A stretch of 64,000 bases of DNA. It comes from Polaromonas sp. (GTDB lineage: Bacteria; Pseudomonadota; Gammaproteobacteria; Burkholderiales; Burkholderiaceae_C). Location: NCBI GenBank assembly GCA_043778205.1, contig JAYWGO010000012.1:10029-74028 (forward strand). Reading direction: 5' to 3'. The notes under the pieces are model-generated. The model saw only the letters and a program-made list of their open reading frames with translations. It did no database searches and was not told the origin of the DNA. Shown here piece after piece: positions 3,760 through 21,558 of this stretch (positions are counted from its first letter, which is position 1; every line of letters begins with the position of its first letter). The position numbers and the translations under genes are program-made.

Positions 3760-4644
3760 ATGCTTTACCCAGAACTCTTTAAACAACTTGAATCGGTCCG
3801 ATGGGACATGGAAAAAGATATTCCATGGGGGCAATTTGACGGGGCGCAGCTGACCGACGAGCAAGCCCAAACCATCAAAATGAACGCCATTACCGAGTGG
3901 AGCGCACTGCCCGCCACCGAAATGTTTTTGCGCGACAACCGCCACGACAGCGACTTTTCTGCCTTCATGTCGATCTGGTTTTTTGAAGAGCAAAAGCACT
4001 CCTTGGTGCTGATGGAATACCTCAAACGTTTTCGCCCCGACATGGCCCCCACCGAAGCCGAGCTGCACGAAGTGCGCTTTGAGTTTGAGCCCGCACCTGC
4101 GCTGGAAACGCTAATGCTGCATTTTTGCGGCGAAATTCGCTTAAACCACTGGTACCGCCGGGCCAGCGAATGGCATACCGAGCCGGTGATTAAAAACATC
4201 TACACCAAGCTAAGCCAAGACGAAGCCCGCCATGGCGGTGCCTACCTGCGCTATATGAAGCGCGCCATTGGCAACTTTGGTGTGGATGCCAAAGCTGCAT
4301 TTACCAAGGTAGGCGTGCTCATGGCCAGCGCCCGGCGCACCGCCCAAGCCCTGCACCCTACCAATTTGCACGTGAACAAAGCGCTGTTCCCGCGCGACAC
4401 TATCCAGAGCCGCTTGCCCAACCCTGACTGGCTGGAGCACTGGCTGGACACGCAAATTAAGTTTGACGCGGTGTGGGAAGGCAAAGTGGTAGAGCGTATT
4501 TTGCACAACATGAGCCTGCTGATGGAGCGCAGCTTTGAAAGCGTGCAAGAGCTCAACCGCTTTCGCAAAGAGCTGTCTAAAGAGTTGGCAGCCAAAGCCG
4601 AAGGCTTGATACTGCCCTCTGGTGTTGCCACCAGCGCGGCATAA
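3760..4644 (+). CDS. ferritin-like di-iron carboxylate protein (acyl-ACP-desaturase-like fold)
   Basis: 294-aa ORF with two ExxH motifs (FFEEQKHS and SQDEARHG) at the spacing expected of di-iron four-helix-bundle proteins. Confidence 0.65.
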   Translation: MLYPELFKQLESVRWDMEKDIPWGQFDGAQLTDEQAQTIKMNAITEWSALPATEMFLRDNRHDSDFSAFMSIWFFEEQKHSLVLMEYLKRFRPDMAPTEAELHEVRFEFEPAPALETLMLHFCGEIRLNHWYRRASEWHTEPVIKNIYTKLSQDEARHGGAYLRYMKRAIGNFGVDAKAAFTKVGVLMASARRTAQALHPTNLHVNKALFPRDTIQSRLPNPDWLEHWLDTQIKFDAVWEGKVVERILHNMSLLMERSFESVQELNRFRKELSKELAAKAEGLILPSGVATSAA

Positions 4645-9470: not shown

Positions 9471-9525
9471 ATAGCTACTTATTTAATAGCTGCTTGTGCA
9501 GCGTTTCCTTGGGCCACAGGCCCAA

Positions 9526-9533
<8 letters not shown>
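9471..9533 (+). repeat. triple-palindrome repeat element, copy 2 (left arm partly duplicated)
   Basis: ATAGCTACTTATTTAATAGCTGCTTGTGCAGCGTTTCCTTGGGCCACAGGCCC. Confidence 0.9.
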
Positions 9534-10404
<871 letters not shown>

Positions 10405-10426: not shown

Positions 10427-12166
10427 ATGCCCACCCTAGACTGGCTTAACCGCACCGATGCCTTCACCACTGCAAGCAAAGTACCCTACCGGCTGCTAGA
10501 GCCCATCTCCAGCCACGGCGACCCTATAGCCCAAAGCAACCTGCTCATTCAAGGCGACAACTTAGAGGCTCTTAAAGCCCTGCTACCGTTTTACCGAGGC
10601 CAGGTGAAATGCATCTTCATCGACCCGCCCTACAACACCCAAAGCGCGTTTGAACACTACGACGACAACCTGGAGCACGCCCAGTGGCTCAGCATGATGC
10701 TGCCCCGCCTGCAACTGTTGCGCGAGCTGCTGCGCGAAGACGGCAGCATTTGGGTAACGATTGACGACAACGAGGGGCATTACCTGAAGGTGATGATGGA
10801 TGAGGTGTTTGGGAGGAGAAATTTTGTAGCGAATGTGGTTTGGCAGAAACGCACCTCTCCAGATGCAAGAATCCAACTTGGAGCAGCGCATGACCACGTA
10901 TTTGTTTTTGCAAAAGCAGTAGAAAAATTATCGTTCAACCCCTTAAAGCTATCGACTGAACAAGCGAAGAATTTCAAAAATCCTGATCAAGATACTCGCG
11001 GAGCATGGGTTTCCACCGACTTCACAGCCCAAGGATGGCGACCCAACCAGATGTACGAGATCCTTAGCCCAAACGGAACGCGTTACTCACCACCGGAAGG
11101 TAGATGCTGGGGAAATGTCGAACCGGCTTACTTACGCCTTCTCAGTGAAGGTCGCATGTGGTTCGGCAAAGATGGCGGTGGCCGTCCGCGAGTAAAAAAT
11201 TATCGTGCGGAAAACGAAGGAGTTAGCTCATGGAGTTGGTGGGTCAATGAAGACGTAGGGCACAACCAAGAGTCGAAAAAAGAAATCAACGAACTGTTTG
11301 GTGCAGCGAATGCCTTTGATACGCCAAAGCCGGAGCGTTTGATTCAACGTGCTCTTGCAATAGCCACAAACCCCAACGACCTAGTCCTCGACAGCTTCCT
11401 AGGCTCCGGCACCACCACGGCAGTCGCTCACAAAATGGGCCGCCGCTGGATCGGCATCGAGATGGGCGAGCACGCCGTCACCCACTGCCTGCCGCGCATG
11501 CAAAAGGTGGTGGACGGCGAGCAAGGCGGCATCAGCAAAGCCGTAGGTTGGGGAGTTGCCGCAGATGGCGGTAAGTGGCAAGGCGGCGGTTTTCGCTTTA
11601 TGCGCCTGGGTGAGCCGGTGTTTGACGCGCAGGGCCGCATCCACAGCGCGGTGCGCTTTGCTACGCTGGCAGCGTTTGTGTGGCAGCAAGAAACTGGCAC
11701 CGCATTCAACGCCGCACTGGCTAAAGCGGGCACGCCTTACCTTGGCACACACTATATTTATGATAGCTGTCTCCGCAATATTCTATTGACCCAGGAGCCT
11801 ATTTCATTATCAAAAGCGCTCCCAACAGACCTATTTGCGCAAAGTACGCCTGACGATAGCCCATCGCCACCCCAGAGCACCGCAGGCAGCGCCGCGCAGA
11901 GCGACGTGCCGCCCACACCCCCCGCTCCACCCACAGCTACCGCCTACTACCTACTATACAACGGCATACTGGGCGACAAGCGCCCCGCCAGCGGCAACGT
12001 GCTGACCCAAGCCGTGCTAGACGCACTGCTGCAGCTGCACACGAGCACCCCCAGCCCCGATGCCCCGCTGGTGGTCTACGGCGAAGCCTGCCGCCTGGGC
12101 GAAGAGCGGCTACAGCGCGCGAATGTGACGTTCAAGCACATTCCGTATGACGTGAAGGCACGGTGA
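10427..12166 (+). CDS. mod: Type III restriction-modification methyltransferase (Mod, beta-class N6/N4 MTase)
   Basis: 579 aa. Motif IV FIDPPYNT precedes motif I LDSFLGSGTT, the order typical of Type III Mod. The res gene lies downstream. Confidence 0.85.
   Translation: MPTLDWLNRTDAFTTASKVPYRLLEPISSHGDPIAQSNLLIQGDNLEALKALLPFYRGQVKCIFIDPPYNTQSAFEHYDDNLEHAQWLSMMLPRLQLLRELLREDGSIWVTIDDNEGHYLKVMMDEVFGRRNFVANVVWQKRTSPDARIQLGAAHDHVFVFAKAVEKLSFNPLKLSTEQAKNFKNPDQDTRGAWVSTDFTAQGWRPNQMYEILSPNGTRYSPPEGRCWGNVEPAYLRLLSEGRMWFGKDGGGRPRVKNYRAENEGVSSWSWWVNEDVGHNQESKKEINELFGAANAFDTPKPERLIQRALAIATNPNDLVLDSFLGSGTTTAVAHKMGRRWIGIEMGEHAVTHCLPRMQKVVDGEQGGISKAVGWGVAADGGKWQGGGFRFMRLGEPVFDAQGRIHSAVRFATLAAFVWQQETGTAFNAALAKAGTPYLGTHYIYDSCLRNILLTQEPISLSKALPTDLFAQSTPDDSPSPPQSTAGSAAQSDVPPTPPAPPTATAYYLLYNGILGDKRPASGNVLTQAVLDALLQLHTSTPSPDAPLVVYGEACRLGEERLQRANVTFKHIPYDVKAR
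11751..11805 (+). repeat. diverged copy of the repeat element, inside mod
   Basis: ACTATATTTATGATAGCTGTCTCCGCAATATTCTATTGACCCAGGAGCCTATTTC aligns end to end with copies 1 and 13. The conserved blocks are ACTAT, ATAGCTG and CTATTT; the rest is roughly 60 percent identical by eye. Confidence 0.45.
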
Positions 12167-12268
12167 TATGGCTTGGAAGAAAACGTCCTGCCAACAAAGA
12201 GGCCATGGCACAGTAAAGCTATGACCTCTAAAAACCTCTCCACCTCCCTCACGACCGTGCCGCAACCC

Positions 12269-13069
12269 ATGGCGCACTATTTTGTCGACGAGTCTGGTGA
12301 TGGCGTATTGTTTGGCAAGCAGGGCAAAGTGCTTCTGGGCCATGGTGTGAGTACACCGCATTTCATGCTTGGCTTGTTAGAAGTAGCTGATCCAGTGGCC
12401 TTGGCTACCGCCATGGAGGATTTACGGCAAAGTTTATTGGCAGAACCTTATTTCAAAAATGTGCCATCGATGCAGCCACAACGGTGCAAAACTGCGGCTA
12501 TGTTTCATGCCAAAGACGATTTACCCGAGGTGCGTCGCGAGGTATTTAAGCTGTTAGCGCAGCATGACATTAAGTTTTATGCGGTGGTACGCAATATGCG
12601 CGCCGTACTAACCTATGCCTTAGAGCGCAAAGCGCGTGACAGCACCTATCTTTATAAGCCAAATGAACTTTACGACAGCAGCGTGGCACAGCTATTTAAA
12701 GATCGCTTGCATTCGTATGAGAGTTGCAGCATTCATTACGGAGTGCGTGGCACAGCAGATCGTATGCGCGCTTTTCAGGCGGCGTTAGATCTTTCGAGAA
12801 CACGGTTTGAGCAAAAGTGGGGTCAACAAGTCATCACGCATATTGACTTACAACCCAGCCGCCCTCAGAAGTCGACCTGCTTACAAGCTGTGGATTATGT
12901 GCTGTGGGCGCTGCAACGCTATTACAACGCACAAGAAAGCCGTTTTATTGAGTTGATGTGGGACAAGGTAGGCGTTGTCCACGCGATAGATGAAAAAACC
13001 ATCTCCGTCGAGGGCACCCATTACACAAAGAAAAACCCGCTGCCTGAATTAACAGGAGCGGGTCTATGA
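12269..13069 (+). CDS. DUF3800-family protein inserted between mod and res
   Basis: The N-terminus MAHYFVDESGD matches the DUF3800 hallmark (x-DESG near the start). Later blocks are FHAKDD and FYAVVRN. Alternative starts are ATG 12221 and TTG 12173. GC is visibly lower than in the flanks. Confidence 0.65.
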   Translation: MAHYFVDESGDGVLFGKQGKVLLGHGVSTPHFMLGLLEVADPVALATAMEDLRQSLLAEPYFKNVPSMQPQRCKTAAMFHAKDDLPEVRREVFKLLAQHDIKFYAVVRNMRAVLTYALERKARDSTYLYKPNELYDSSVAQLFKDRLHSYESCSIHYGVRGTADRMRAFQAALDLSRTRFEQKWGQQVITHIDLQPSRPQKSTCLQAVDYVLWALQRYYNAQESRFIELMWDKVGVVHAIDEKTISVEGTHYTKKNPLPELTGAGL

Positions 13070-13275
13070 ATAAGGTGTGGGAATATAGGAGTGCGCAGCG
13101 GGGTTTCCCCTTGGCCTTACATTCTCACGGCATGGAGCCGAATTTTGTTCCCACGCCGCAATTGTACAACTCTGTATGTCGTTTTGTCAAACTACTTAAA
13201 CAATTGCCTCTTCATTTTTTTCAATTAAATCAACAGCTTAGGCTGTTTAGCACAGCAATCTCTTGTAAAAGCTGA
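13066..13275 (+). CDS. possible small ORF (69 codons), ATGA-coupled to the DUF3800 gene
   Basis: Its ATG overlaps the DUF3800 TGA (ATGA). The segment is AT-rich and I recognise no motif. It may be non-coding. Confidence 0.2.
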   Translation: MNKVWEYRSAQRGFPLALHSHGMEPNFVPTPQLYNSVCRFVKLLKQLPLHFFQLNQQLRLFSTAISCKS

Positions 13276-13293
13276 ACAATTCAAGCACACCAA

Positions 13294-15972
13294 ATGACCA
13301 CCCTCACCCTCAAGTCCTACCAACAAGCCGCGCTGGACTCCCTGCGCGACTTTGCCCGCGCCGCGCAAGTCAAAGGCCCGGCCATGGCGTTTGGCGAGCA
13401 GGTGGGGCGGCCTTACAACCCTAACCCGTTTGGCGAAGTGCCTTGCGTGTGCCTGCGCATTCCCACGGGCGGCGGCAAAACGCTGCTGGCAGCGCATGCA
13501 GTGCCGCTGCTGGCGCGGGAGTGGCGTGCAACGGATGCGCCTGTGGCGCTGTGGCTAGTGCCTAGCGACACGATTCGCAGCCAAACGCTCAAAGCCCTGC
13601 AAACGCTGGGGCATCCGTACCGCGAGGCGCTGGAGGCTGCGTATGGCACAGGCCTCCAGGTATGTGCGCTGGAAGAGGTGGCGCAGATTGCGCCGATTGA
13701 CTGGGGGCGCAAAGCGGTGGTGGTGGTGGCCACGATTCAGAGCTTTCGGATTGAAGATGCCGATAAGCGCAACGTGTACAGCTTTTCGGAGAACTTTGAG
13801 CGGCACTTTAAGGGCGCGATTGAGCGCGACCTGCAGCGCCTGCATGGCTTGCCCGATGCCGTGGTGACCGAGGAAGAAGCTGCCAAAGACGGCAAAGGTG
13901 TATTGAAAGGCTTTGTGGGCCAGCCGCGCTGGAGCTTGGCCAACTGGCTGGCGCTGCACGAGCCGATGCTGATTGTGGACGAGGCGCACAACACCAAGAC
14001 GGACAAAAGCTTTACCGCACTCAAACGGCTCAACCCCAGCTTGATACTGGAGCTGACGGCTACGCCCGTAGCCAGCCAGACGAATGTGCTGTACCACGTA
14101 AGCGCGCAAGAGCTGGCGGCGGAGAGCATGATCAAGCTGCCGATTGCATTGGCCGAGCACCCGCAGGGCTGGCAGCAGGCGGTGTTTGCAGCGGTGCAAA
14201 ACCAGCGGGCGCTGCATGCAGAAGCTTTAAAGGACGAAGCGGCAGGCAACGGCTATGTGCGGCCTATGGTGCTGTTTCAGGCGCAGAACGTTAACGACGA
14301 GGTGCCGCCGGAGGTGCTGCGCAAGTATTTGCAAGACGAGCTGCATATTGAGCCGGCATGCATTGTGGTGGCGACGGGGGATACGCGCGAGCTGGACGGG
14401 CTGGATTTGCAGTCGCGCGCTTGCCCGGTGCTTTTTGTCATCACCGTGCAGGCGCTGCGTGAGGGCTGGGACTGCCCGTTTGCGTATATTTTGTGTTCTC
14501 TGCAACGCTTATCTAGCGCCACGGCCGTGGAGCAGCTACTAGGCCGCGTGCTGCGCATGCCGTACGCCACGCCGCGAGGTCGCCCCGCGCTGAACCGGGC
14601 CTATGCGCATGTGTGCGAGGCAGAGTTTTCTAGCGCTGCGCATGCGCTGGCAGACCGTTTGATTAACCACATGGGCTTTGAGGCACTGGATGTAGCGTCG
14701 ATGCTGGTGCAACAGTCTAGCTTGCCTTTATTTGAGGAAAATCAGCCTGTAGCCCAGCAGAATGTTGCGCAAGTAGCTACTAATTTTGAAGCGGTTTTGG
14801 CCACCACAGAGATAACCAGCATGCCCGGTGTGCAGTTGCAAACCATTGCGGGCACACCGCAGGTGGTGGTGACGGGGCACATTAACAGCGAACTGGAAAT
14901 TTTGCTCCTAGGCGGTGTGCGCGGCGCTAAAAGGCAAAGCCAAGTGAAAGAAAAAGTAGCGCAGCACAACGCGCTGGTGGCCGCCGTGACCTCCCCCGCT
15001 GCGCGCGGGGCCAAGTTTGCACCCGTGCCCATGCTGGGCTACCGCTCCACGCCGCAAGGCCAGCTTTGGCCGCTGGAGCGCGAGGCAGTGCTGGAGATGG
15101 TGGAGCTGGATTTACTGTCGCCCGAGGCGCTGCATTTGCCAGGTTTTGAGGTGGTGGAGCAGTCCAATACGTTTGAGATCTACATGAAGGATGCGCAAGT
15201 CAAGCTGCGCGCAGCAGATGCCAACCAGATAGCGTTTGACTACGGCTCCAGCACCATTACTTCGGATGATTTGGTGCGCTGGCTGGACCAGTCTCTTTAT
15301 CAAAAACTGTCTGAATTTACCCAAGGCCAACGTCGGGCGTGGTTTGCCGCCGTGGTGGGCAAGCTGCTCAATGAAAAGGGTTTGCCGCTGGTAACTTTAG
15401 CCAAAGCGCGCTTTAAGCTGGCGCAAGACTTAGAGCACAAGGCTGCGCAGTTGCGGGATAAGGCGGCCAAAGTACAGTTTAAGCAACTGGTACTGGAGCA
15501 AGCATGGTTGATTGAGCCCGACTGGTCTAGGCCACATTTGTTCGAGCAAGGCCGCTACCCCGCACCTGTGGGCTCACGTTATACGGGGCGCTACGAGTTT
15601 GCACGCCACTTCTTCCCGGTATTGGCAGACCTGAAGGACGGTGGGCAAGAGTTTTTGTGTGCCCAGCTGATAGACGGCCACCCTAAAGTCAAACACTGGG
15701 TGCGTAATTTAGACACCGCGCCGTGTGGGTTTGCGCTGCCAACGTCCAAGGGGCGTTTCTTCCCAGATTTTGTGGCTGAACTGCTTGACGGGCGGATTGC
15801 TGTAGTGGAGTTTAAGGGCGCACACCTTAGCAGCGAACCTTATGAGATTGAGAAAAAACAAGTGGGGCTACTTTGGGCAGGTGCCAGCCAAGGTAAGGCA
15901 CTGTTTGATTGGGCGCTGATGGCGCGGGATGGTTTGAGCCTGTCGCAGCAATTGGACAAACTTTTTGCATGA
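13294..15972 (+). CDS. res: Type III restriction endonuclease Res subunit (SF2 helicase plus C-terminal PD-(D/E)xK nuclease)
   Basis: 892 aa. Walker A IPTGGGKT, motif II IVDEAHN, a later [10 protein letters not shown] block, and a C-terminal FFPDF...VVEFKG nuclease-like motif. Confidence 0.85.
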
Positions 15973-17907: not shown

Positions 17908-20900
17908 ATGACCTCGCAGATTTTCGTCATCAACCCTGCTTCGCTGCAAAAAGCAGTGAACGCCGCGACCTACGAACGCGGCCGCGAAGTGTACCTGCAA
18001 CAGCGTGTTTTAAGCTACAGCCTTGAACCTGAAAGCAGCACGGCATGGCATATTTCAGGCCAGGTGCAAGGCAGTGGCCGCGATGTCTACAGCACGTCAG
18101 TGGACATAGAAATTACCAGCGATGGTGCTATCGCGTCGTACAGCGCCAACTGCAGCTGCCCCGTGGAGCGCAATTGCAAACACAGCGTGGCCGTGGCGCT
18201 CAAAGCCGCCTACAAGTCGGGGGCCGTGCGCGGCGTGGTCAGTAGCCCAGCGCCCGCACCCCACAGCCCAGCCCCAAACGCTGCGCCTGGGGCCACGGCC
18301 TTAAGCCCGGAGCAGGCGCAAGCGCAGCGCTTGAAGGCCCCCACCCGCACGGCCCTGGACCGCACGGCCCCCACCCGCACGTCCGTAGACCGCGCAGCAC
18401 TGGACAGCAGCATCGACGAGCGTGGCGCGACCAAGGAACTGAGCGATTGGCTAGATTTATTTGGCGACCCTGGCACCAGCACAGCTGCAGCACCCGCTAC
18501 CAGCGCCAGTGGCTACGGCGCGCCTGACCAAGTAGTCTACATGCTGGGCTTTAAGACGCTGTCGGGCCACCGCGTGCTAGAGCTGTGCTTTGGCACTGCG
18601 CGCGTGCTGCGCACGGGCAAGTGGAGCAAGGTCAAACTGGACCACTACTTTGACGGAGGTCGCTCGCCCGCGTCCGACAAAGAGGTGGTGCGCTTGATCA
18701 CCAGCATGAGCAAGAACAGCTATGGCTACAGCTACCAAAGCCACAGCGCCACGCTAGAAGGTGCTACAGGCCTGCTTGCGCTGGAGTTGGCCGCCAAGAG
18801 TGGCCGGCTGTTCACCCAGCTAGGCGACCGGGTGCTGGACCAACCAATTGCCTGGGGCCCAGACCACAGCCTGGCCTGGACATGGCAAGAAGAGCGCGGG
18901 CGCAACGCACATAAAAACGATGCCATGCTGTGGCGCATGGTGCCTAGCAAGCCCGCGTCCATGCAGTTGTTTACCAACCAGCCCGCGTTCTACCTGGACA
19001 CCGCCAGCGGCCTGTGCGGCCACGCTGTCACGCCGGGCATGGGCGATGCGCAAACCAGTGCCCTGCTTAAATCCCCCGCTGTAACGCAAGCGGCGCTAAC
19101 GCAATTTGAGGGAGCCCTGGTCAACCGGTTTGGCGGTTTGGCTTTGCCACCCAACATGACCGCACCGCGCGTGATCACCGGCATCACCCCGGTGCTGCGC
19201 CTGCACATAGAGCACGTGCAGGCCGACCAACGCGCCGAGCTGGGCCCGCTGCTGGCACGCCTGCGCTTTGACTACGCAGGCGTGTCCCACTACACCCATG
19301 GCGTGCAAAACCCTGTGATGGTTGAAACCCATGCCTGGGCCGAACAAACCCCTGGCGCAGGCCTGCAGCAGCGCACCACCCGCGTGCTGGTTCAGCGCGA
19401 CATGGCCGCTGAGCACACCGCGCAAATCACCTTGCGGCTGTGGAACCTGGCTGGCGATGCGCAGGGCGTATTTACCAGCGGCACGGGCACTGTTGCGCAA
19501 AGCCAATGGCTGCAGTGGGTGGACGATGGTTTTGCAGGCTTTAAAGACGCGGGGTTTGAAGTTACCCAAGACCAAGCGCTGGCCAGCTGGATCACCCATG
19601 TAGACGGCATCCACATCAACCTGGACGATGCCAGCGCGCCACACAGCAGCCAAGCGCAGCACAAACCAGACAGCGACAGCGCGCAAGCGGCTTGGTTTGA
19701 CCTGTCCCTGGGCATCGACATCAATGGCCAGAGGCACAATATTTTGCCCATGCTGCCCCAGCTGCTGGCACAGTTGCAAGCCGTGTCTTATACGCAGCCG
19801 TTGGCAGAAGGTGCAGCAGACAACGCGCCTGCCAACACAGCCGTGCAGTTGCAGATGCCGCCTTTTGTCTACCTAGAGCAGACGGGCGGCAGCTACCTGC
19901 GCCTGCCCACTGAGCCGCTGCGCCCCTGGCTAGAGGCCTTGATCGAGCTGGTGGGCGAGCGCGGCATTGCGGACCATGCCGACAGAGTGCGGCTGTCCCG
20001 GCTGGAGGCGCTGCGCGTGGGCGCATCTCTAGGCGCGGGCGCGCAGTGGCAAGGGGCCGACAGCCTGCGCCTGATGGTGCAGCAGCTCCGTGGTGCCGTG
20101 GCTTTGCCCGAGGTAGCGTTACCAACCGGTGTGCATGCTACGCTGCGCCCCTACCAACAGCAGGGCCTGAACTGGCTGCAGTTTTTGCGCACCCACCAGC
20201 TGGCCGGTATTTTGGCCGACGACATGGGGCTGGGCAAAACCGTGCAAACCTTGGTGCATATTGCCGTAGAGAAAGCCGCTGGCAGGCTCGACCGCCCGGT
20301 GCTGATCGTCGCACCCGTCAGCGTGATGGGCAACTGGCAGCGGGAGATTGCGCGGTTTACACCCGGCCTGTCCAGCATGGTCTGGCACGGCGCGGACCGC
20401 CATGGTGAGGCTGACCGCATAGCCCAGCAAGACATTGTCATCATGCCGTATTCGCTGCTGGCACGCGACCAGGCACGCTGGGCCGAGCAGCCTTGGCACC
20501 TGGTGGTGCTAGACGAAGCGCAAAATATTAAGAATGCGCAAACCAACGCCGCCCAGGCAGCCACTGCGCTGAACACCCGCCACCGCCTGTGCCTGTCGGG
20601 CACGCCCATGGAAAACCACTTGGGCGAGTTGTGGAGTTTGTTCCACTTTTTAATGCCCGGTTTTTTAGGCAACCAGTCGCGTTTTAAAGAACTGTTTCGC
20701 ACCCCGATTGAAAAGCACGGCAACACCGAGCGCCTGGGCCACTTGCGCACACGGGTGACGCCTTTTATGCTGCGCCGTGCCAAGCGCGATGTGGCCACCG
20801 AGCTGCCAGACAAGCAGGTCAGCATCACCAGCGTCGAGCTGGGCGACAAACAAGCCAACCTGTACGAGACGATTCGCCTCACCACCGAAAAAGCGGTGCA

Positions 20901-21558
20901 AGATGCGCTGGCCAACAAGGGCTTGGCCCGTTCGCAAATTCAAGTGCTGGATGCCTTGCTGAAACTGCGCCAAGTCTGCTGCGACCCGCGTTTGCTGCCG
21001 CTGGCATCGGCCAAAAAAATAAAGCAGTCGGCCAAGCTGGAACTGCTGATGGAGCTGCTGCCCCAGCTGCTGACGCAAGGCCGCAAAGTGCTGTTGTTCT
21101 CGCAGTTCACCAGCATGCTGGAGCTGATTGAAGAGGAGCTAAAAAAGCACGCCATGGCCTGGGTCAAACTCACAGGCCAAAGCCAAAAACGCGACCAACT
21201 TATTGCGCGCTTTACCAGCGGCGAAGTGCCGCTGTTTCTCATTAGCCTGAAAGCGGGCGGCGTGGGCCTGAACCTGACCCAGGCCGACACTGTCATTCAC
21301 TATGACCCGTGGTGGAACCCAGCGGTAGAAAACCAAGCCACCGACCGCGCTCACCGCATAGGCCAAACCAGCCAAGTGATGGTCTACAAGCTGGTGGCAC
21401 AAGGCACCATTGAAGAGCGCATGCTGCAACTGCAAGAGCGCAAAGCCCAGTTGGCCGAAAGCATGTACAGCGCCTCGGTAGCGCGCAAGCAACCCCTGTT
21501 TACCGAGAGCGATTTGGCCGAGCTGCTTAAACCGCTAAGTGCCAGCACACTGGGCTAA
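17908..21558 (+). CDS. SNF2-family helicase with an N-terminal SWIM zinc finger
   Basis: 1216 aa. [22 protein letters not shown]2 motifs [30 protein letters not shown]. Helicase-C block [12 protein letters not shown]...[21 protein letters not shown]. Confidence 0.85.

Follow-up and report, generated by a model that had tools for sequence, protein, structure and literature searches.

A DUF3800 gene and a convergent structured RNA form a conserved cargo module at the mod-res junction of a Type III restriction-modification operon

The mod and res genes, which encode the methyltransferase and the restriction subunit of Type III restriction-modification (R-M) systems, are canonically adjacent or overlapping. 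This order is broken at a locus of Polaromonas sp. (GenBank assembly GCA_043778205.1, contig JAYWGO010000012.1), where 1,127 bp (12167–13293) separate the two genes, and the question arises as to what this insert consists of and what it does in an R-M operon. All the positions given here refer to the window, i.e., the whole stretch of DNA analyzed, which is 64 kb long. An earlier note on this window, made from the sequence alone, had described mod and res as split by 1.1 kb carrying a DUF3800 open reading frame (ORF), and this description was borne out: the only ORFs present in the gap are that of the DUF3800 gene and one of 69 aa (13066–13275). The comparison with related loci shows that the insert is a conserved two-gene cargo module, in which the DUF3800 gene and the gene of a structured RNA converge tail to tail.

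Relatives of the DUF3800 gene were scanned for in one genome per species, and 80 loci were kept. The alignment of the spacers extending from DUF3800 to res showed an invariant core, CACGGCATGGAGCCGAA (13126–13142 in the window), with covarying arms on either side, and a pattern search placed this core 40–90 nt past the DUF3800 coding region in 78/80 loci. With the covariance model R1, exactly one copy of the RNA was found per locus in 80/80 DUF3800 loci, always convergent with the DUF3800 gene, and the 64-kb window gave a single match (65.6 bits, E 2.6e-13). The RNA, which is about 90 nt in size, has a consensus fold consisting of a three-stem junction, in which P1 is the outer stem, P2 is a variable hairpin, and P3 is a hairpin of 4 bp (CGGC/GCCG) that is invariant. 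The nucleotides of the junctions (CRAAAUU, UGUG, and CCUAUAU) are near-invariant. The folded core runs from 13154 to 13077 in the window, where P1 is formed by 13154–13148 and 13083–13077, and P3 by 13140–13137 and 13131–13128. The U-rich tail of the RNA overlaps the DUF3800 stop codon (13067–13069); in many relatives this stop is a TAG located within a conserved ATATAGG, inside the element. In the R1 alignment of 80 distinct sequences, 87% of the cells were paired versus 38–47% when the partners were slid, and 304 double-sided changes were observed versus 105 ± 10 in shuffles, the observed values being reached in 0/500 shuffles. Compensatory changes were found in 16/19 base pairs. The alignment used for covariation was fitted to the R1 model; independent MAFFT alignments agree with it. 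The tail of the gap, which had been described in the earlier note as AT-rich, does have a low GC content (0.424), but it is not a plain spacer, since it encodes this minus-strand structured RNA with a promoter of its own.

The strand of the RNA was assigned on several grounds. The minimum free energy (MFE) is the same on both strands (−30.0 kcal/mol each) and does not discriminate between them, and the stems fit either one. The element was at first read as a structure in the plus-strand 3′ untranslated region (UTR) of the DUF3800 mRNA, the indication being a U.G pair where P1 ends on its inner side; this reading was dropped once the minus strand was found to have the conserved promoter and to be favored by both the wobble pairs and the U-tract. 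The promoter scan gave TTGACA-18-TACAAT on the minus strand (11/12 consensus matches), directed into the element. Among 74 distinct loci, a sigma-70-like promoter with at least 9/12 matches was present on the RNA strand in 47 cases and on the other strand in 3, which was replicated in independent loci (50 versus 4 of 93). Since the −10 box ends at a fixed distance of 18–22 nt from the core, the RNA is predicted to start at the first base of P1, at around 13154 in the window. In a strand-neutral helix alignment, G.U pairs numbered 163 on the minus strand versus 95 on the plus strand, and after P1, 36/74 loci have a U-rich tract on the minus strand, compared with 12/74 on the plus strand. The possibility that the element is a plus-strand structured 3′ UTR, or a DNA-level site serving in recombination or binding, would fit the equal MFE values and the many loci whose element contains the stop codon of DUF3800, but it is very improbable in view of these strand signals, of the presence of the element without any upstream ORF in orphan loci, and of the compensatory changes, which point to a single strand that folds rather than to a protein-binding site in duplex form. 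As a side observation, most of the Type III relatives have a perfect DnaA box, TTATCCACA (TGTGGATAA on the + strand), between the −35 and −10 boxes of the RNA promoter; the carriers, L003 (with two copies) and L004–L013, have it between the RNA and res, and the equivalent sequence in the window (13167–13184) is degenerate.

When all the families in Rfam 15 were searched at E ≤ 1, no match was obtained in the window between 9000 and 18000 or in 12 other RNA-bearing loci, and the assignment to a known RNA family was rejected. Rfam includes RF02969 (DUF3800-I) and RF02968 (DUF3800-IX), neither of which matches the small RNA. A small coding ORF, either the 69-aa ORF or one starting at an ATG in the core, was also discarded: no family match was found, the core shows substitutions at codon positions 1 and 2, and the stems covary. 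The RNA family appears to be new relative to Rfam 15 and the searchable literature, and it may be equal to a DUF3800 motif published in 2017 if any of these motifs are outside Rfam. It was absent from phage isolates and from Escherichia coli genomes.

The protein encoded in the gap matches Pfam DUF3800 (PF12686) with 35.0 bits, the gathering threshold being 21 (E 2.9e-8), and its best PADLOC model is DUF3800_VII (3.5e-13); the family assignment made in the earlier note is thus supported by both profile collections. The two motifs forming the signature of the family (PMC7736814) are present: an N-terminal DE (FVDESGD) and a C-terminal QxxD (LQAVDY). Database searches gave 2,237 homologs, many of which are 55–70% identical over their full length, and in an alignment of 27 homologs, acidic, histidine, and basic residues were invariant (D7, E8, H80-A-K-D-D84, D136, Q206/D209, and H238/D241). 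An AlphaFold2 model was obtained with a mean predicted local distance difference test score (pLDDT) of 84.6 and a predicted template modeling score (pTM) of 0.84. The ten best matches found with Foldseek in the PDB were all archaeal RNase HII (E 4e-6 to 3e-4, template modeling scores 0.35–0.51), and no PDB match was found at the sequence level. The modeled fold is RNase HII-like with a conserved acidic center, and the invariant D7 and E8 lie at the DESG motif, around which the earlier note had placed a possible active site of this kind. An RNase H-like fold has been predicted previously for other DUF3800 proteins (PMC7736814, PMC10910872, PMC12669027). The view that nothing is known of the properties of DUF3800 is outdated, as it is a recognized RNase H-fold family that has been tied to type VII retrons, to Cas12a2/a3 and Cas13 loci, and to non-coding RNA motifs (PMC7736814, PMC10910872, PMC12669027, PMC5737381). 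In a CASK preprint dating from 2026, the DUF3800 protein Csx32 was given no role. None of the 50,697 genomes of isolated phages searched contained the subfamily, and hardly any of the 72,556 plasmids did; the idea of a phage or plasmid gene was rejected on these grounds.

The mod-DUF3800-res order, with all three genes on the same strand, occurs in 15/16 of the closest relatives (54–70% identical), which belong to Rhodoferax, Polaromonas, Acidovorax, Giesbergeria, and the Alcaligenaceae; the synteny is thus shared across genera and is not unique to the present strain, and several of these cassettes are again located beside lipB or yecA. In 56 distant relatives (45–53% identical) from Planctomycetota, Chloroflexota, Verrucomicrobiota, and other taxa, a methyltransferase gene of another R-M type is often present directly upstream: the upstream neighbors include N6_Mtase in 10 cases, Eco57I in 8, MmeI in 4, Type ISP in 3, and N6_N4 in 4, and HsdS occurs upstream or downstream. 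The cluster representatives confirmed enzymes of Type IIG as well as HsdM/S/R of Type I, and counting the recurrent clusters only, an R-M gene is adjacent in at least 40 of the 80 loci. The DUF3800+RNA module, which recurs in many bacterial phyla, sits directly 3′ of DNA methyltransferase genes belonging to R-M systems of Types I, IIG, ISP, and III.

The Res family is very large, and four close Res homologs (74–78% identity) differ at the mod-res junction. In L254 the junction is empty, mod and res overlapping by 4 nt; L255 carries a broken mod and a Schlafen/AlbA_2-HATPase (HATPase_c_4) gene; L256 carries HEC-01A/B (5e-87 and 4e-22); and L257 carries DUF3800. The RNA is present in L257 and absent from the other three. 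The fact that close Res homologs carry either nothing, HEC-01, a Schlafen-like ATPase, or DUF3800 with its RNA means that the junction is a variable slot for defence cargo. In L001 (2916–4646) a gene of the Schlafen/AlbA_2-HATPase type comes after the RNA, and in L257 and L254 genes resembling SoFic or PD-Lambda-2_B lie just 5′ of mod. In the Type III clade, the DUF3800 and Res identities correlate (Spearman 0.73) with clear exceptions, so that inheritance has been mostly joint with occasional exchange. Between L009 and L010, for example, the identity is 100% for DUF3800 but 84% for Res and 66% for Mod, which indicates a recent exchange of either the cargo or its flanks. A transposon or other insertion element was rejected as the nature of the insert in the absence of flanking direct or inverted repeats. 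The accessory role coupled to Type III restriction that had been proposed in the earlier note thus stands in part: the accessory-defence reading is favored because the mod-DUF3800-res order recurs across genera and the same junction holds other defence candidates, but the specificity for Type III does not hold, since the module also occurs with Types I, IIG, and ISP. That the module specifically regulates restriction is no more than a possibility.

In a reverse test, metagenomes and IMG/VR were scanned for the 17-nt core, which gave 120 and 52 stretches, respectively. Chance accounts for 57/172 of these core matches, as expected for the size of the collections, and the covariance model separated the real instances; with about a third of chance matches, the 17-mer core was rejected as a specific probe. 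Among the real instances with room to judge, DUF3800 was adjacent or nearby in 45 of the 68 from metagenomes and in 1 of the 24 viral or proviral ones from IMG/VR, none being detected in the remaining 23 in each collection. When the neighbors of these orphan RNAs were scanned with the subfamily hidden Markov model and with Pfam, no hidden divergent DUF3800 was found beyond those in L147 and L240. DUF3800 of this subfamily therefore implies the RNA, while the RNA does not imply DUF3800, and because the RNA occurs without any detectable DUF3800, it is not merely an antitoxin for an adjacent DUF3800. Among the neighbors of these RNAs, methyltransferase genes are again enriched, and so are helix-turn-helix, AAA_21, IS200, and integrase genes. 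In the Type III locus L174 (2367–7081), mod (558 aa) is followed by the RNA and then by res (898 aa), without DUF3800; this locus either derives from a deletion or represents a form of the cargo that comprises the RNA only. In L253 (4990–5082), an unannotated copy of the RNA (67.9 bits) is present at around 50.5–50.6 kb on plasmid NZ_CP033062.1 of Synechococcus elongatus UTEX 3055, flanked by an Abi-family gene and an integrase gene; this copy provides a tractable cultured cyanobacterium for work on the expression of the RNA. Two other arrangements were observed. Tandem pairs of RNAs about 210 nt apart, with no DUF3800 nearby, occur in L121 (metagenomic, 3806–3889 and 4017–4117) and L216 (IMG/VR, 1674–1774 and 1902–1985). 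In L083 (1389–1482), and also in L217 and L251, the RNA ends 1–2 nt 5′ of an ORF encoding a 353-aa N6_N4 methyltransferase on the same strand, a leader-like layout unlike the convergent arrangement with DUF3800.

The classical case of a gene embedded in an R-M system is that of PrrC within EcoprrI, which is of Type I; no sequence similarity was found between the DUF3800 protein and PrrC or RloC. Guilt by embedding, as described by Payne et al. (2024, 10.1101/2024.01.29.577857), resembles the present situation in that a gene is nested in an R-M system and that alternative defence cargos occupy the slot, including HEC-01, which was defined in that study; the hosts surveyed in its main text are Hma, BREX, DISARM, and Type I R-M, and unlike these cases, in which neither DUF3800 nor Type III hosts are mentioned in the main text, the cargo here includes an RNA gene. 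The small RNA also has much in common with the motifs DUF3800-I to -XI (Weinberg et al., 2017, PMC5737381), to which no function is assigned: it is a conserved structured RNA showing riboswitch-like conservation, it adjoins DUF3800, it does not lie in a 5′ UTR, and it has a terminator-like 3′ end. For those motifs, either orientation relative to the gene is allowed in the literature. The small RNA differs from them by the lack of any match with the two Rfam families mentioned above, and neither embedding in R-M systems nor copies without DUF3800 appear in the main text on those motifs. Type VII retrons are made up of a reverse transcriptase (RT), an msr/msd non-coding RNA, and a DUF3800 effector (Mestre et al., 2020, PMC7736814); the effector here is likewise of the DUF3800 family (DUF3800_VII model, RNase H2-like fold, DE motif) and is paired with a structured non-coding nucleic acid, but its QxxD motif is complete, the Q being missing from the retron proteins, and the RNA is downstream and convergent. 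A retron was rejected, since neither the gap nor its surroundings contain a reverse transcriptase gene, the neighbors being Mod and Res. Lastly, a nuclease-type protein encoded with a small RNA gene recalls toxin-antitoxin (TA) systems of types I and III, and the convergent 3′ overlap resembles that of some type I systems. In type III systems of the ToxIN kind, however, the RNA consists of tandem repeats and lies upstream on the same strand, whereas here it is single-copy, downstream, and convergent, without tandem repeats; and unlike the small membrane peptides of type I systems, the putative toxin here would be an enzyme of about 270 aa. The association of DUF3800 with structured RNAs (11 motifs, PMC5737381) and the presence of defence genes embedded in R-M systems are thus already known in general. 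With respect to Rfam 15 and the searchable literature, what appears to be new is the RNA family, the fact that it is strictly coupled to a single DUF3800 subfamily, and its placement with methyltransferases from four types of R-M system, the mod-res junction being the site in Type III.

The DUF3800 gene is probably co-transcribed with mod, and the DUF3800+RNA module is probably an add-on antiviral module. More specifically, we propose tentatively, with a confidence just short of even, that DUF3800 acts as a nuclease effector, that its cognate RNA gates this activity, and that the pair constitutes a second line of defence inside the R-M operon. DUF3800 would be a metal-dependent nuclease, and the RNA might serve as its inhibitor or antitoxin, or else as a sensor or cofactor. 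Infection disturbing the RNA (by transcription shut-off, degradation, or sequestration), or restriction being overcome, might be the trigger upon which the nuclease would be released, and either the infection would be aborted or phage nucleic acids would be attacked. We infer such gating because DUF3800 is the effector of type VII retrons, recurs as an accessory of RNA-guided systems, and has slot-mates of the defence type; the precedents are the DUF3800 of type VII retrons, which is restrained by the complex of RT and multicopy single-stranded DNA (RT-msDNA), and the Cas13 and Cas12a2/a3 loci with a DUF3800 accessory (PMC7736814, PMC10910872, PMC12669027). Several points weigh against this proposal. 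No biochemical activity, RNA binding, or anti-phage activity of DUF3800 is reported in the literature, and the slot-mate HEC-01 gave no protection in the published tests. The expression of the RNA from the minus strand is deduced from its promoter and terminator signals. Among the distant DUF3800+RNA loci, about half lack a recognizable R-M neighbor in the recurrent clusters; copies of the RNA lacking DUF3800 make up 23/68 of the metagenomic and 23/24 of the IMG/VR instances; and the layout misfits those of classical type III and type I TA systems. Whether the module forms a self-contained ribonucleoprotein immune system, that is, an RNA-gated RNase H-like effector without any RT or CRISPR array, serving as a portable back-up for R-M systems of Types I, IIG, ISP, and III in many phyla, with the proviral DUF3800-less RNAs being decoys or trans-acting partners, is a rather doubtful extension of this idea.

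A role in the control of the host R-M system, rather than in immunity as such, would account for part of the data. The convergent promoter, RNA processing by DUF3800, or both might insulate res from mod transcription, and thus set the Mod:Res ratio or delay Res after transfer, the module being a control element and not an independent immune effector. It is consistent with this reading that the module always lies directly 3′ of the methylase gene and, in Type III, 5′ of res; that the RNA promoter opposes read-through from mod-DUF3800, while no + strand promoter for res was detected in 13191–13293, the scan of 11900–13500 having given no + strand promoter at 9/12 or above; and that RNA-only versions separate mod from res (L174) or hsdM from downstream genes, the RNA of one element being placed right before a methylase ORF of the same strand (L083, L217, and L251). 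We nevertheless find this role distinctly unlikely, since sister operons such as L254 manage without the module, with overlapping mod and res, since the module is also found behind Type IIG and ISP enzymes, which are single polypeptides and need no subunit balance, and since about half of the loci lack an R-M neighbor; a conserved nuclease-like active site is not expected in a simple insulator either, and the other cargos in the slot are genes of the defence type.

The tail-to-tail overlap between a small RNA and the 3′ end of a putative nuclease gene, resembling convergent antisense TA systems, might also point to a selfish addiction cassette, in which a nuclease toxin and an RNA antitoxin would ensure post-segregational killing and hitch-hike in R-M and defence islands without any antiviral benefit. 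The exchangeability of the cargo (L009 versus L010), the proximity of mobile-element genes in orphan contexts, and the atypical GC content of the copy in the window are in line with such a cassette. It is improbable, however, given that no flanking repeats or mobility genes are present in the window, that the subfamily is essentially absent from the plasmids and phage genomes searched, where addiction modules thrive, and that the correlated DUF3800 and Res identities reflect mostly joint inheritance; TA and abortive-infection roles can, however, coexist.

The organization of the locus is summarized in Table 1.

Table 1. Organization of the mod-res region (positions in the window).
Feature	Position	Strand	Remarks
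mod, Type III R-M methyltransferase gene	10427–12166	+	579 aa, apparently intact; PADLOC MTase_III PDLC03644, 4e-175; Pfam N6_N4_Mtase, 2.6e-48
DUF3800 gene	12173–13069	+	longest ORF, TTG start at 12173; predicted RNase H2-like nuclease
Structured small-RNA gene	13057–13160	−	convergent with DUF3800; covariance model R1
Sigma-70-type promoter of the small RNA	13161–13190	−	−35 TTGACA 13190–13185, 18-nt spacer, −10 TACAAT 13166–13161
Residual AT-rich spacer 5′ of res	13191–13293	+	without convincing + strand promoter
res, Type III R-M restriction subunit gene	13294–15972	+	892 aa, apparently intact; PADLOC REase_III PDLC03650, 6.8e-201, full length; Pfam ResIII

In Mod, DPPY is found at residue 66 and FLGSG (FxGxG) at 324, which is the order of the N6_N4 (beta-class) layout, and Res has GGGKT (Walker A) and DEAH (superfamily 2 helicase) motifs together with a C-terminal PD..EFK at 824 (PD-(D/E)xK nuclease). 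Alternative starts of the DUF3800 gene are the ATG at 12221, which is the one used in the 98%-identical P0001, and the ATG at 12269, where the conserved core MAHYFVDESGD begins. The GC content of the gap (0.481) is lower than that of the whole window (0.589), and exactly 25 G+C are present in 12661–12720, in agreement with the dip and the count given in the earlier note. At third codon positions, the GC content is 0.53 in DUF3800 versus 0.62–0.73 in the neighboring genes. The 5′ half of mod is likewise low in GC (0.52), and in the relatives the GC content of the cargo tracks that of the host; the dip is therefore at its strongest in this window and is not a general feature. The R-M block lies, as had been noted, between a yecA-like gene (UPF0149 + SEC-C, 9496–10404) and lipB-lipA, the lipB ATG being overlapped by the res stop codon as ATGA (15969–15972). 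The R-M cassette is located directly 5′ of lipB-lipA in many Comamonadaceae-like genomes (L001–L005, L014, and L254–L256), with the same ATGA overlap between the res stop and the lipB start, which suggests either a conserved insertion site or a coupling of lipB transcription to res. Right after lipA, a 1,216-aa ORF (17908–21558) shows SNF2-type helicase motifs, such as DEAQ, in its translation. No flanking direct or inverted repeats or mobility genes were found in the window, and apart from a 12-mer due to chance, tandem and direct repeats were absent.

DUF3800 proteins recur beside systems of nucleic-acid-based immunity (type VII retrons, Cas13, and Cas12a2/a3), and eleven RNA motifs associated with them have been unexplained since 2017. 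The present locus adds a clean pairing between protein and RNA (80/80), a defined RNA gene having a promoter, a three-stem fold, and a terminator-like tail, and a role as interchangeable cargo in an R-M slot; since these three elements are now defined, the question of the function of DUF3800 and its RNA is directly testable with a two-gene construct. Guilt by embedding is extended here to Type III R-M systems. In addition, what appears to be an intergenic spacer can hide an RNA component, and protein-centered tools such as PADLOC and DefenseFinder would miss components of this kind.

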